Assembly: GCA_046563655.1 (NCBI GenBank)
Contig: CM102285.1
Location: 1,116,001 to 1,180,000 of the forward strand
Origin: Yuukianura sp. NJ FZ-2021
Lineage: Eukaryota
Reading direction: 5' to 3'
DNA: 64,000 nucleotides
The notes under the pieces were generated by a model that saw nothing but the letters and a program-made list of their open reading frames with translations, did not search any database and was not told the DNA's origin. Below are positions 2,575 through 46,386 of this stretch, piece after piece. Numbering within the stretch: the first letter of the stretch is position 1; each line of letters begins with the position of its first letter. The translations under genes were made by a program, and so were the position numbers.

Positions 2575-3405
2575 TTACTTTCCAAATCGCTGTTCACTCT
2601 CTCCGAAAATCCGAAGCCAGTTTTCCAAATCCGTTTCATCGCATTCCGGGAAGTACTTGTTTTCGTAGTAAAATTCCGCATAAACCGATTGCCAAATTAA
2701 AAACCCCGAATTACGAAAGGTTCGCGAATCTTTTGCTCCAGTGCGCACAATCAAATCAGGTACTGGGTACTCATCTCCCGCCATTGAAACATACCCAGAG
2801 ATTGTTTCGACAGACATTTTTTCAACAGAATCAAGATGTTGAATTTTTCGAATTGCTTCTACAATGTCTTCCCGTCCACCATAGTCGATTGCAATGTTGA
2901 GACAATGGTCTGTTCTGGATTTCGATTCAGTTTCAATAGTGTTCATAAATTCAAGTATGCTTTTTGGTACTCTGTTCCTCTGTCCAATGAATCTCACTCG
3001 ACAATTGAATTTATCAGCAAGTTTTCTGCAAATTGAAAATTGTTGACCCAGTAACTTAAAAATAATTTCCAGTTCTGATTTCGGACGGCCAAAGTTGTCT
3101 GTACTGAGAATCCACATGGTAACTGTGTGAACTCCGCGTTCAAATGCTGCTTGTCCCAATTTGAAAAGTACGTCTATCCCTCTTGAGTACGCAGTCAATT
3201 TTGTCACATTTGCTTGGCGGGAATACCGACGATTTCCGTCTGGAATAATTCCGAGGTGTTTCACATTCGTCGACAGTGTTCGCTCTGGGGCCGGTTTACA
3301 GCCAATATCGGCATTGAGTTGCGATATTCCGTTACTTTTTGCATTGGATACCGATTTCAATCCAGGTTTGGTTTCGGTTACCGATTTTCCGCAACAATTT
3401 CCCAT
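2575..3405 (-). CDS. cis-prenyltransferase (UppS-like isoprenyl transferase), intronless, 276 aa, N-terminal MGNCC
   Basis: HLGIIPDGNRRY (region I), LSTDNFGRPKSE, IDYGGREDIV, PDLIVRTG..RNSGFLIWQSVYAEFYY..FPE and C-terminal RFGK, all in one uninterrupted ORF. Confidence 0.93.
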   Translation of the reverse strand: MGNCCGKSVTETKPGLKSVSNAKSNGISQLNADIGCKPAPERTLSTNVKHLGIIPDGNRRYSRQANVTKLTAYSRGIDVLFKLGQAAFERGVHTVTMWILSTDNFGRPKSELEIIFKLLGQQFSICRKLADKFNCRVRFIGQRNRVPKSILEFMNTIETESKSRTDHCLNIAIDYGGREDIVEAIRKIQHLDSVEKMSVETISGYVSMAGDEYPVPDLIVRTGAKDSRTFRNSGFLIWQSVYAEFYYENKYFPECDETDLENWLRIFGESEQRFGK

Positions 3406-10297: not shown

Positions 10298-13110
10298 ATG
10301 ATGATGGACTTGAGTTGGAGTGGGAAGGGGCGAAGTGAGGCCGAAGTCCGCGGCGGGTCAATGGCTTCTGGAAGACCCGCCAAGTCACTCTTCTCCATCA
10401 GAGATCTAGTGGAGTGTGACAAGGATCCGCAAACTCCAGGTACGTTGGCAAGTTAGTTACATGATGCAGCCTGCATGATTATGTAACTTACATGATGATG
10501 TAAGGTAAATGAAAATGTCTTGGCCAAGGTTGCTATAGAACCCATTTATAAATGCGCTAACAGGTTATGCCATGACTCTGATTTAAAAAAAAACACGAAA
10601 AAAACAACTTTTGAACCAATTTTGTTTACTTTCACAGCAATCTTTTTTTTCAATTTTCACGTTGTTAAGCCATAGTTCTATTTCGAATTGCTAATAAAAC
10701 GAAGCTGCATCAGATAGGCGGTTCAAAAAATTTGAAAATTTGAAAAGTGGAGTTATGGTATAACCTGTTAAGAAAAAATAACAAAATTTCTTGGTATTTA
10801 CTACACCGATTGAAGGCTTTGGGACTGATTTTTATGTAATTTTTGACATTGAAGATGGTGCTGGAGAAGACAGTCGGAAGCGAAGTGTGTCTCCGTCACA
10901 TGCGCACTCCAAGGGCTCTTCCCCTACGCATTCCCTGGATGATGCTGATGGATTGTCAGAAGGCGGGTCAGAGGGTACTGATGACCTTCCGAAGCGGAAA
11001 CAACGCAGATACAGAACTACTTTCACCAGTCTTCAACTAGAGGAACTCGAGAAAGCTTTTGCACGCACGCACTACCCAGACGTCTTCACAAGGTCAGCAC
11101 AAAATTCCCTAGCTATTATGCAATAAGGTCAAAAGTAATTTGGTCGAAAAACAAAAAGTTCAAAAATACAAAACGAAAAAGAAAAAAACTCTGCAAAACC
11201 CAGACTTGTCGAATCCATTTTCCGTTTTCTTAATTGGACGATATAAATTTTTTTTTTGCTCAACTTGCCACTTCTTTTCTTGAAATTTTGATTTTTAAAA
11301 TTAATTTTGTGAAATCTCCAGGTTGTGAACTTTCATTGCTTGAAATTTACAGTGTTTGACCGTTTTCATTTTTTTGAATTTTACTTTTTGACATTTTTTT
11401 TTTGAAGTTTCACTTTTTGACCAAATGTTTTTTTTACATGGAACTGGAACTCCGCAACCTTGAAAGTGTTAATCTGTGGCGTTGGTTGCCCTTAATAGTT
11501 TTAAAAGGAAAAAGTGATTAGGACCTTAAAAAAGGTACGGAGATTTGTGGAAAATCTTTGGAGAGAGATCAAGATTTTTTTCATAGAAACAAAAAAAAAA
11601 CCAAAGTTTGTTCAAGGTTAAATGTCCAATGGAGGATGGAGTGTTAATTGAGTTTGAAAATCCAATTAGGCCTCAATTAATGGACTTAAGTGGAAGTACT
11701 AATAATATTTTGGTTTTAGGGAGGAACTGGCCATGAAGATCCAGTTGACAGAGGCCAGAATCCAGGTAAGATGCTGTCACACCTTCTCAGTCTCAGTTAA
11801 TGTTAAGAGTGCTAATCGGAGACTGGGCACTTCTCGCTTATCGCCAAAGTGCACTTTGACTCTAATGGACTCAGCAATTGACTTCATTATGACACAAACT
11901 TCCCAAAAGCATTCCACAGCCACGCAGTGAACAAAGTTAGGCTTTAACTCGAGGGAATTCGGAGGGATTCGGAGGAATTCGGTAGAAACCAAGCTCGGGA
12001 AAAATTGGTTGAAAAAAATTTTGAATTTTTTTTTTTAAATTGCGAGAGAACAATTGAATTAGGAAGTATTAGGAATCTCACGGCCACTTGAGCATTAATT
12101 GCATCTTCAAATTACACTTCAATTACAATTCACAACATTCGTGATTTGACTCGTGTCAGGCTCTGGTTGGAAGTTTAGACATTAGGTTTGGTACAACAAA
12201 TTGTCACTCATTATGTCAATTAGTCACTTGCAAGATAATGTTGCATTCCACATTCATTCCACAATCCACAATCATTCCACATTCAATCCACAATACAAAA
12301 TCATTCCACATTTAAGACTATGAAACAGCCTCCCCTTAGCAATTTTCAAAATTTAAAACCCAAAACTAATGAATTCTTGGAAAATCTGTAAATTTATAAA
12401 CTGAAAAAATTTTCACTCAAATTAGCAAGAATTTATCTGGATTCTGATTGGTTTGAATTTTATTTCAGGTTTGGTTCCAAAATCGGAGAGCAAAGTGGCG
12501 AAAAAGCGAGAAGGTGGGACCACAAGCTCATCCTTACAATCCATTCGGAACGACCACGGTGGGGCTCGGTGGGACTCAGCAACCCACCCAAGTTTCTCAA
12601 CCTTCCGGCATTCCATTCCCACCTCTCTATCTCCGTAAATCTCTCGACCCACCGACAGTCCTTCCCCACAGAATTCCCCACCCCTGGTCCCACCACCCCA
12701 TCCCACCCCCTTACTTCCCCCACCCACTCGCCCCCTCGACTAACCACCTCAACGGAATGAGAACAGGGGGTCATGGGTCAGCATTTCTGAGTCACCAGGC
12801 AGCAGCGTATTTGCACTCTGGTGGGCCCTCATTTCAGAACTTGTTGGCTCAACTGAACGGCGCCGCCGCGGCGGCAGCAATGCAGCACCACCAACTCCTC
12901 CTCCACCAACCACCGCCATTTCCACCACTTACGACATCAACTGCGTCTGAATTCGTACTGAAGTCTTATCCTTCTGACAACTCACGTAGTCCTATCCAGA
13001 CTTCTGGAAGTGACAGCGAAGAGAGTAACCATGGTAACCAACCACTAAGTAACGATCTGAAGAGAGACGAAGTGAGTGTGCGTAGAGGTCCTGACGACAT
13101 TCTCATCTGA
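10298..13110 (+). CDS. al: Aristaless paired-like (Q50) homeobox protein (exons 10298-10439, 10855-11092, 11720-11765, 12469-13110)
   Basis: The spliced homeodomain [74 protein letters not shown] closely follows arthropod aristaless. Exon 1 has an eh1-like FSIRDLV motif. All junctions are GT-AG and in phase. Confidence 0.92.
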
Positions 13111-28640: not shown

Positions 28641-29766
28641 TTCTCGAGCAGACTGCTCGAGAAATACCAGGATATTCTTCGAGCAGTCTGCTCGAGAAAT
28701 ACCGTGATAATTCTCGAGCAGTCTGCTCGAGAAATACCAGGATATTCTTCGAGCAGTCTGCTCGAGAAATACCAGGATAATTCTCGAGCAGTCTGCTCGA
28801 GAAATACCAGGATATTCTTCGAGCAGTCTGCTCGAGAAATACCAGGATAACTCTGGAGCAGTCTGCTCGAGAAATACCAGGATATTCTTCGAGCAGTCTG
28901 CTCGAGAAATACCAGGATAATTCTCGAGCAGTCTGCTCGAGAAATACCAGGATATTCTTCGAGCAGTCTGCTCGAGAAATACCAGGATAATTCTCGAGCA
29001 GTCTGCTCGAGAAATACCAGGATATTCTTCGAGCAGTCTGCTCGAGAAATACCAGGATAATTCTGGAGCAGTCTGCTGGAGAAATACCAGGATATTCTTC
29101 GAGCAGTCTGCTCGAGAAATACCAGGATAATTCTGGAGCAGTCTGCTCGAGAAATACCAGGATATTCTTCGAGCAGTCTGCTCGAGAAATACCAGGATAA
29201 TTCTGGAGCAGTCTGCTCGAGAAATACCAGGATATTCTTCGAGCAGTCTGCTCGAGAAATACCAGGATAATTCTCGAGCAGTCTGCTCGAGAAATACCAG
29301 GATATTCTTCGAGCAGTCTGCTCGAGAAATACTAGGATAATTCTCGAGCAGTCTGCTCGAGAAATACCAGGATAATTCTCGAGCAGTCTGCTCGTGAAAT
29401 ACCAGGATAATTCTCGAGCACTCTGCTCGAGAAATACCAGGATATTCTTCGAGCAGTCTGCTCGAGAAATACCAGGATAATTCTCGAGCAGTTTGCTCGA
29501 GAAATACCAGGATATTCTTCGAGCAGTCTGCTCGAGAAATACCAGGATAATTCTCGAGCAGTCTGCTCGAGAAATACCAGGATATTCTTCGAGCAGTCTG
29601 CTCGAGAAATACCAGGATAATTCTCGAGCAGTCTGCTCGAGAAATACCAGGATATTCTTCGAGCAGTCTGCTCGAGAAATACCAGGATATTCTTCGAGCA
29701 GTCTGCTCGAGAAATACCAGGATAATTCTCGAGCAGTCTGCTCGAGAAATACCAGGATATTCTTCG
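28641..29766. repeat. 35-bp palindromic tandem satellite, ~32 units, mostly a 70-bp dimeric higher-order repeat
   Basis: Core (tt)ctcgagcag-t-ctgctcgag(aa) plus ataccag, followed alternately by gatattcttc or gataattctc. Confidence 0.95.
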
Positions 29767-43630: not shown

Positions 43631-44127
43631 CTAAAAAAAATAAAAGTTCAGGAATAGAACTCAGAGATCTTGTCGGTTTGGGTGGAGTTGGACTCCGCGG
43701 AGCCACTTGACACAATTGGAAACGAATCAAACAGTAATTCATTTCCATCAATTTATGGCCACACAATCCTACATAAAAATCTACTTTTCCTACAATTTAA
43801 AAACTGCTTTTTCCTACTTACGGCTACTTGGATATTCAATTTATTTTGGCTGTTGACCCAATTACACAGGCGACAGACTTCCATGCCTTTCAATACAAAA
43901 ACAAAAAATCCAACCATAACTCCATCACTTTCCTACTCAATCCAATTTGTTGTCACTCCATAAAAGAAAGTGTCGAAAATTTATCTAAATTTGTCACTTT
44001 TTCCGTTTTGCAGTAAACACAACTGATAGAAGCAAAAACTTACTTTTTTTTTTGCTTGGAAGAACTTGATGGAACTACTGCGCAGCATGAATTTGGTAGC
44101 TACTGCGCAGCAGCTTCAATTGGTTGG

Positions 44128-45656
44128 CTACTGCGCAGGTACAATTTCCATTTGGAGTGTTCCGTATCTGCTTTTGCGCTGAGCTCCAATGACATTGGCG
44201 TAGATTTGTCCATCTATGAATTCCACTGCAAATTGGGCCAGTCTAGCCACCGACTCTTCGTCAGGAAAAGCATCTACCAGTTTCTTGGCGCAGACTTTGA
44301 TGTCCTTGATGATACTGCGCAGTCGCCTTGTCTCGAGATCAACAGCATCCTGGAGTGACATTCCCTGCTCGACCACTCTTCTGAGAACCACCGTAGCATC
44401 GGTATCTCCCGTGACAATATCTTTGTTCACTCCCAGAATGTCGTTGATGAGTCCTCCGAAGATCCGCATATTTTCAGACAGGATTCTGAACAACAAAGAC
44501 TGACGGACGTGACTTGGCAACGTCGCTTCTGCCACCACGGCTCCAAGTTCTGCAAAAACGCCGAGCCCTGCATCGTAACCACGAATGACCCGCTTGGCCT
44601 CTTCACTGAATACGTCACCTTCGGTTTCTGAATGGAGAGATTCCAGGTTGAGGAAGACTCCTTCTGCTGAAATGAAGAGTGACCTCATAATGGGGCTCAC
44701 ATCCGCAGCGGGAATTACTTTTTGAATTTTCCTCATGGCAGCCACGAACACTTCGTAGCAAGTGTCCCACCCAGGTACAAGTGCAGTCAACTCCTTCACT
44801 CTTTCAAGCTCTCCCGCAAAAACTTTCTCCCAAACATTGTAGTTTTTGTACAGAAAACTCGTGGTAACCTTGACAAAAAAAAATTCAGAAATTACGAGAA
44901 AACTCAATCGGGGAGCAGCCTGTTTTTTTTTTCATGAGTCCAAATTGAAAAAAAAAATGTTTCTCACAGTGCCCCAGTTTGTGTGCACCCCTCGAACATT
45001 CCCTCCTACAATTTCCCGGGCCGGGTAGAGTTGCTTTGAAAGTCAATGCTTTTTCATACCGCCTATCATTATTGAGGCGACTGGGGAAATGTGAAAACGT
45101 AATTGTCAATTTGGACCGAGAACTTTTAAACTTTTGTTTTGGGCTTACTTGGAATGGAAACTCGTCCATGTTGTCAAAGAGATCGTCACTGAAGTAGGCA
45201 CTGTCGATCATGTCCAACACAACTTCAAAGAGGGGGCTATCTGTAGGGACACGAGGAAAGCACAGGGCAGCGACAATGTTGATTGTGCGACACCAATGTC
45301 GCAATTGCTCTTCGTCCCACTCCTCATGCAGTCGCCCACACCGCTTCACCGTATTCTCCAAAATCACATTCTGCTCTTCTTCACTCAGTCCAAAGTATGT
45401 CGACACTGGAAATGACCTAAACATATAACAAACAATTGAAGATTCAGTTTTCAAAAAACAAAATTTCAAAGTTTTGAAAAAACTTTGAGAAATGATACCC
45501 CATGGGGAGCAGGAAGTGAAGGTGGCCTTTGAGCTCTTGAGCTTGTCCATAGATTGGATGGTCGATTGGTCCGAAGTTAAAGTTGAGCTGGAGTGGCGTC
45601 CCTTCAGCGACGCTGTCCAAACAGCCAAGCTCCGCGTAAAGTGGTAAAGTGCTCAT
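44128..45656 (-). CDS. Microbial-type class I terpene synthase (proposed exons 45656-45499, 45416-45149, 45033-44968, 44868-44128; ~410 aa)
   Basis: DDLFD (DDxxD), IRGYDAG (effector Arg), NDILGVNKD (NSE/DTE variant) and C-terminal RY occur in the expected order and spacing. Exon phases are consistent if the AAG acceptor at 45034 is used. Confidence 0.85.
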
Positions 45657-46386
45657 TTCGATTTGAAGTTGTAGCAAGTATTTCTAGAGTGTGCGGATCC
45701 AGCGGATGAGTGATGCTGCTTCTGCAGTGGCGTATTAAATACTGCACAAGCATCATTTGAATACTTGAGAATTGCATAACAACGTCAATGTAGATGGAAT
45801 TGAAGGTCGTTTGGAGGGAATCCCAGTCGCACCCAACGCAATTTAGCAGGTTGAGAAAAAGTTCTTCTAAAAAACTGGACCTACGAGAAACAAGGAAGAA
45901 CAAGTCAGAATTAAAGTCAAAGTCAAACGTAAAACTCAAAAACCAAAACAAGTTCCCACTGGGCTTCCCTGTTCCTTGCTCTCAAGGAAATTCTTGAACT
46001 AAAATCTTTGCGTTAAGCAGCACAAATCTTAGCAAAAAAAAAATCACCTCTTATTGTCGTCAATTTTCTCCCACCTGAATGAATTGATTACCAAATTAAA
46101 ATTAATAGCTAAAGAATTTCAATTTTTCTCTAAATCTAAAAACTGTAATGTCCCAAAAACTGATGCTATTTCCCCACTTTTAAAAACAAAGCAAAAAATG
46201 GTAGAGAAACCCGACCTGCGCGAGTTACACAAAAAATCGATAAGTTGTTAATACCTCACCCCTGCTTTCTCTGACTTTCACTTCCAGTCCAAAACTTGAG
46301 AAAGCATTGAAAAGACGGAGTTAAAGGCGGCCTTCACTTGACCTTCGCTTGACCTTTCGGAATCACTGGCACACTGATCGGTTGAA

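Follow-up and report, generated by a model that had tools for sequence, protein, structure and literature searches.

In insects, for example flea beetles and stink bugs, terpenes are made from prenyl diphosphates by terpene synthases (TPS) that go back to trans-isoprenyl diphosphate synthases (IDS). The discovery of microbial-type TPS in animals changed the view that animal terpenes are products either of symbionts or of such IDS-derived enzymes. Canonical TPS genes have been described in sciarid flies, in mites and in the springtails Allacma fusca and Folsomia candida, and three springtail enzymes (FcTPS2, FcTPS5 and AfTPS2) are reported there to have activity with both GPP and FPP and, in two cases, with GGPP as well (PMC11665903). 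A survey of springtails gives 277 terpene synthase genes in 21 of 26 genomes, 55% of them with introns; it places these genes in a clade of their own with an origin that it leaves unresolved, and it reports four of the five Sinella enzymes (ScTC1-5) to be active on substrates from FPP to GFPP (PMC13638087). As presented in these two accounts, the Collembolan TPS stand in a clade apart from the bacterial, fungal and mite enzymes (PMC11665903, PMC13638087), and the TPS of mites and sciarid flies form a clade separate from that of Collembola (PMC11665903). Higher terpenes are described as widespread cuticular lipids of springtails (PMC11321324).

Here we describe a TPS gene in a 64-kb window (the whole stretch of DNA that was analysed). 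It is very probably an intact nuclear animal gene for a single-domain (alpha) class I microbial-type TPS, belonging to a divergent arthropod family in which the only named members that we found are from Folsomia candida. Most likely, an ancestor of the lineage took the gene up from a microbe in the distant past. It resembles the Collembolan TPS, as PMC11665903 and PMC13638087 describe them, in encoding an alpha-only class I protein in an arthropod genome, in having introns, as many of these genes do, and in having the Asp-rich motif, the sensor Arg, RY and a form of the triad. It also resembles the TPS of mites and sciarid flies, which are microbial-type genes of arthropods, have introns and are regarded as horizontally acquired (PMC11665903). 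Springtail microbial-type TPS were already published in 2024 and 2026, in the accounts cited above; the window gene fits them and overturns nothing. It is one more intact, intron-bearing microbial-type animal TPS.

Gene structure and genomic setting

The TPS gene lies on the minus strand at 45656..44128, with its start ATG at 45656 and its TAG stop at 44130-44128, and its uninterrupted frame encodes 388 amino acids in three predicted exons separated by two GT-AG introns:

Exon 1, 45499..45656, minus strand: 52 codons plus 2 nt; N-terminal segment with the conserved DHPxYG motif (gene model).
Intron 1, 45417..45498, minus strand: 82 nt, GT..AG, GC 0.22, interrupting a Gly codon after its second nt.
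Exon 2, 45149..45416, minus strand: Asp-rich DDLFD at 45173-45187 (gene model).
Intron 2, 44869..45148, minus strand: 280 nt, GT..AG, phase 0; in the window gene only.
Exon 3, 44128..44868, minus strand: 246 codons plus TAG; sensor Arg238 (44581-44583), NDILGVNKD (44419-44445) and RY (44164-44169).

This model is supported by comparison with relatives. The exon 1 segment was recovered by tblastn in two related loci, L002 (E 1e-9) and L003 (E 2e-6), and the start Met of the window gene aligns with a Met of L002 in the same search. Exon 2 aligns to the N-terminal part of three related proteins (P0001, P0002 and P0005), and when it is spliced to exon 3 the product aligns to P0001 without a gap at the junction; more generally, the window protein is colinear, and gap-free at both junctions, with relatives that do not have intron 2. 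The C-terminus, MEIVPAQ followed by the stop, agrees with the ends of the relatives, so that no third coding intron is needed; such an intron was considered and ruled out on the colinearity of the protein with its relatives at the two ends and the two junctions. The span of 44128-45656 proposed in the earlier note on this DNA was therefore exact, while its count of three introns has to be reduced to two (82 and 280 nt), given a frame that is colinear with the relatives lacking intron 2.

The neighbours of the gene in the window include a Ras-family exon, two zf-BED ORFs, a tetraspanin exon, a DUF2465 exon and SDR exons, and animal genes are found on both sides of the TPS within the 64 kb. The TPS coding sequence (GC 0.494, GC3 0.534) is at the upper end of its neighbours, whose exons range from 0.41 to 0.54 in GC and from 0.35 to 0.53 in GC3, with one neighbour exceeding it in GC and none in GC3. 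The gene and its flanks are also covered by independent short-read DNA contigs from four runs of two studies; those of one sample bridge the ends of the gene into both flanks. A homologue search with the DUF2465 exon found nothing, the window gave 0 Rfam families and 0 tRNAs (ARAGORN), and no further copy of the TPS, or of the cis-prenyltransferase considered below, was found within the 64 kb. Two further features of the window are recorded here in their own right:

Homeobox gene, 10782-13110, plus strand: paired-class, aristaless-like, with an intron inside the homeodomain; an ordinary animal gene.
Satellite, 28641-29766: a 70-bp unit made of two 35-bp halves, repeated about 16 times with 97% matching; the array gives rise to long spurious ORFs in three frames.

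Family, fold and predicted active-site motifs

The earlier note had proposed an HMM search, and exon 3 alone matches the Pfam model PF19086 (Terpene_syn_C_2) at 30.2 bits, above its curated gathering cut-off of 23.7 (E 4.6e-7); in NCBIfam, the same exon gives weak matches to isoafricanol and epi-isozizaene synthases. None of the three exons matches the polyprenyl synthase (trans-IDS) family in Pfam at E<=1, in which the window gene is unlike the IDS-derived insect TPS, and at the same threshold the window exons have no match to the plant TPS models PF03936 and PF01397. In our alignment of 46 rows (44 database proteins plus window exons 2 and 3, referred to as A3), PF19086 matches 36 of the 46 rows at E<=0.001 and PF03936 a single one, weakly. 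When the profile of this alignment was compared with the PDB, 100 sequences matched at E<=1, the best being 10-epi-cubebol synthase (7zrn, E 6e-23), followed at the top by T-muurolol, BcBOT2 and epi-isozizaene synthases, and every one of the 60 matches listed of these 100 is a terpene synthase or an engineered variant of one. In two such alignments the family triad pairs with the NSE motif of the solved enzyme, and in the first of them DDxxD also pairs with the Asp-rich site and RY with RY.

Structure prediction points in the same direction. AlphaFold models of P0001, a relative that is 49% identical (pLDDT 94.1, pTM 0.92), and of window exon 3 alone (pLDDT 93.4) have the all-helical alpha (class I) terpenoid cyclase fold, with a Foldseek probability of 1.00 and TM scores of up to 0.72. 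The P0001 model superposes on BcBOT2, T-muurolol, pentalenene, avermitilol and epi-isozizaene synthases at TM 0.62-0.72 with sequence identities of 13-20%, and the exon 3 model likewise finds epi-isozizaene synthase and other class I cyclases. The terpene-cyclase fold on which the earlier reading depended is thus present in both models, and its central claim of a spliced microbial-type (alpha-domain, class I) TPS, as opposed to an IDS-derived one, is borne out by a fold and a profile that are bacterial/fungal and by the lack of polyprenyl synthase and plant TPS matches noted above.

All four motifs named in the earlier note are present in the spliced protein. DDLFD occupies residues 130-134, in the same alignment column as the DDxx[DE] of the relatives, R-G-Y-D-A-G (its R-x-x-D-x-G) occupies residues 238-243, NDILGVNKD residues 284-292, and RY residues 376-377. 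The sensor R238 is exactly 46 residues before N284, and R376-Y377 are 92 residues after it. We take the spacing of 46 to be that of the pyrophosphate sensor in bacterial cyclases. The two deviations that the earlier note had pointed out were likewise read in the sequence: aligned to the NDxxSxxxE of 7zrn, NDILGVNKD keeps the Asn and has Gly for Ser/Thr and Asp for Glu, and the residue six before RY, in the context GAQRKSRY, is G and not W. Overall, the window gene is like the bacterial and fungal class I cyclases (7zrn, T-muurolol synthase 9hqd, BcBOT2 8h6q, and the pentalenene and epi-isozizaene synthases) in fold, motifs and Arg-triad spacing, and unlike these solved enzymes in its G/D triad, in the absence of a Trp six before RY, in its spliceosomal introns and in its location in animal DNA.

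The deviations look different once the family is considered. In the corresponding column of the alignment, the 44 database relatives have the following triads:

N..G..D, the form of the window gene: 30 of 44.
N..G..E: 4 of 44.
N..S..E, the canonical form: 4 of 44.
N..G..Q: 1 of 44.
S..S..E: 1 of 44.
Other residues at the triad position: 4 of 44.

Of the two Folsomia candida proteins, one carries N..G..D, the other N..G..Q. The window gene and its closest relatives have in common the additional residues in front of RY as well as the missing Trp; several distant family members keep WYxxxxRY. Judged from these alignments, N..G..D is the norm of the family and not an oddity of the window gene; the usual triad in this family is this one, and not the textbook N..S..E. 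The motif deviations therefore do not single out the window gene, because both the form of the triad and the loss of the Trp are common to its relatives. The suggestion of the earlier note that atypical motifs might go with an unusual substrate finds no support here, with the same triad in 30 of 44 relatives, including one from Folsomia candida. The window gene does differ in this respect from the Sinella enzymes, for all five of which NDxxSxxxE is quoted (PMC13638087).

Catalysis, substrate and product of this predicted TPS are extrapolated from homology. By analogy with class I cyclases, the diphosphate of a prenyl diphosphate would be bound by a Mg2+ cluster, held by DDLFD on one side and by N284, D292 and the position of G288 in the opposite helix on the other, and Arg238 and Arg376-Tyr377 would clamp the diphosphate. 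Ionisation would then yield an allylic carbocation, and its cyclisation or quenching within the helical pocket would produce a terpene, either a hydrocarbon or an alcohol. The substrate is probably an all-trans C15-C25 diphosphate, as for the characterised springtail enzymes, and the product may serve as a cuticular lipid, in defence or as a signal.

Relatives, shared intron and origin

A phmmer search of 1.84 billion representative proteins returned 47 relatives at E<=1e-3, of which 17 were at E<=1e-10 and five at E<=1e-30, the best (E 4.5e-65) being 49% identical; a word-indexed homologue search with exon 3 gave 0 matches. We looked up 30 of the 47, and the only named ones are two RefSeq proteins of Folsomia candida (XP_021952902.1 and XP_021959800.1); the other 28 come from short environmental or Logan contigs, and no named mite or fly protein is among the 30. 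This branch of the family is therefore populated almost wholly by environmental animal DNA. The earlier note had framed the gene in terms of insects, a framing that these results do not support, as the sole named relatives are springtail proteins and it is in springtails that the family has been published (PMC11665903, PMC13638087).

The product of the window gene is only about 30% identical to the two Folsomia proteins over some 150 C-terminal residues, and it clusters with environmental sequences. In a tree built from the 33 rows that are 250 amino acids or longer, it pairs with P0001 (support 100/97), and the Folsomia rows sit on long branches in the opposite half of the midpoint-rooted tree. 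This tree is made of phmmer matches only, without outgroups or the published springtail enzymes, and because it has no outgroup it is silent on origin. The simplest assumption about the host is that it is a springtail, which we consider more likely than not; the neighbouring genes by themselves point only to an animal. A scan with two peptide patterns, covering one genome each of 185,579 species, confirmed no bacterial or archaeal relative.

The introns bear on the age of the gene. Three related loci on environmental contigs were compared:

L001, 595-1593: TPS on an environmental animal-type contig.
L002, 442-1655: TPS on an environmental animal-type contig.
L003, 866-2454: TPS on an environmental animal-type contig.

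The position and phase of intron 1 (after the second base of the codon) are common to the window gene, L002 and L003, and L001 has the same acceptor. Intron 2 is absent from all three, in which exons 2 and 3 are contiguous. In the part encoded by exon 3 the products of these loci are 34-47% identical to that of the window gene, and those of L001 and L003, which come from one metagenome, are 38% identical to each other. Intron 1 thus predates the split of relatives that are now only 34-47% identical in this part of the protein. The locus of P0001, the closest relative (11.6 kb), holds a 524-aa C2H2 zinc-finger array, a BTB domain and an EamA gene that is in pieces as if split by introns. That the gene is old and domesticated, as had been proposed, agrees well with this shared intron, with the host-like GC and GC3 and with the outcome of the 185,579-species scan. 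After its acquisition, the gene would have gained introns and diversified by duplication.

A neighbouring cis-prenyltransferase and the alternative readings

The window contains a second isoprenoid gene, at some distance from the TPS:

cis-Prenyltransferase, 3405..2575, minus strand: intronless, 276 aa, similar to the bacterial homodimeric UPPS, in animal DNA.

It scores 172.8 bits against PF01255 and 152.5 against TIGR00055 (cut-off 109.55), and it is far closer to a bacterial UPPS (6e-35) than to human DHDDS (4e-17). The protein starts with MGNCCG, which is acylation-like, and ends with RFGK, keeping the C-terminal RFG of the homodimeric enzymes. It has DGNRRY and STDNF where ten aligned relatives have DGNRRW and ST[ED]N[WRF] (mostly STENW), and its RTSGE-R-S loop contains a four-residue insertion that is absent from all ten. 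The best relatives in a word-indexed search reach no more than 40% identity; those with names belong to Patescibacteria and Micrarchaeota. An AATAAA is present 32 nt past the stop codon. Taken from its sequence, this gene is possibly a second acquired isoprenoid gene. We found no report of a bacterial-type cis-prenyltransferase in arthropods in the horizontal-transfer literature, nor is a prenyltransferase mentioned in the springtail TPS paper, and this gene may be the less expected element of the window, more so than the TPS itself.

Its presence raises the idea that the TPS uses a cis- or irregular prenyl diphosphate supplied by this enzyme and that its triad reflects such a substrate. In favour of this idea are the occurrence of a full-length intronless UPPS-type gene in the same window, its closeness to bacterial rather than human enzymes, the insertion in its RTSGE-R-S loop and the unusual higher and irregular terpenes that are described from springtail cuticles (PMC11321324, PMC11129290). 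The two genes are, however, 41 kb apart, with the Ras gene, the homeobox gene and the satellite array between them, and none of the three related TPS loci, which are only 2-12 kb long, contains a cis-prenyltransferase; because of this distance and of these three loci, we give a functional link between the two genes a low probability. Nor is the triad tied to the neighbourhood of the cis-prenyltransferase, since N..G..D is found family-wide (30 of 44 relatives), and the characterised springtail enzymes are reported to take ordinary all-trans substrates (PMC11665903, PMC13638087). We therefore consider it quite improbable that the TPS depends on its neighbour in this way. Equally doubtful is the broader proposal of a non-canonical terpene pathway that the animal would have put together from acquired genes. 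In it, a prenyltransferase anchored in the membrane, with cis or irregular coupling, would supply microbial-type cyclases or act in parallel with them, and the outcome would be the unusual higher and irregular cuticular terpenes described from springtails.

The changed motifs could also be read as those of a catalytically dead or repurposed relic that has kept the fold and lost the ionisation of prenyl diphosphates: two of the three NSE positions are altered (NDILGVNKD), the Trp before RY is gone (GAQRKSRY), and one of the five Sinella enzymes is reported to be inactive in vitro despite good motifs (PMC13638087). This is unlikely in our opinion. The frame is intact over three exons, and DDxxD, the sensor Arg and RY are kept, with a triad Asn that is nearly invariant, in relatives down to 20-30% identity; this conservation of the metal- and diphosphate-binding residues across distant relatives points to purifying selection on that site. 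The change from Glu to Asp is a conservative one that retains the carboxylate, and Gly at the middle position of the triad occurs in known active synthases. Moreover, most of a large and retained family has the same variant of the triad. A third alternative is that the gene comes from a microbial contaminant or from chimeric assembly. Its fold and family are indeed those typically seen in bacteria and fungi, and a language-model look-up, taken as a lead only, came nearest to PF19086 clusters that are mostly from Ascomycota. Against this stand the two predicted spliceosomal introns, the animal genes on both sides within one 64-kb window, the host-like composition, the DNA contigs from four runs of two studies with one sample bridging both flanks, the relatives with the same intron on animal-type contigs and the pattern scan without a bacterial or archaeal relative, all of which make contamination or chimerism extremely improbable. 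An intact animal gene for a microbial-type TPS that would probably act on an ordinary all-trans substrate is the reading that we retain.

Two minor observations concern the region of the TPS gene itself. In one run of the second study (X5), which has a different organism label, contig depth is about 90-122 at 45005-45861, covering exons 1-2 and the 5' flank, as against about 5 or less around it, and a single contig leads from 45861 back to 45079. Either an assembly artefact or a tandem amplification confined to this part of the sample's DNA could account for this. At the other end of the gene there is a short repeat:

CTACTGCGCAG, 44075..44138, plus strand: three exact copies (starts 44075, 44100 and 44128), running across the TPS stop codon and the 53 nt of 3' flank next to it.

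The exact copies are spaced 25-28 nt apart, and two overlapping near-copies lie inside exon 3 at 44312-44325. With at most one mismatch, the repeat has 10 matches in the window as against 0.18 expected, and its core, CTGCGCAG, is a palindrome.
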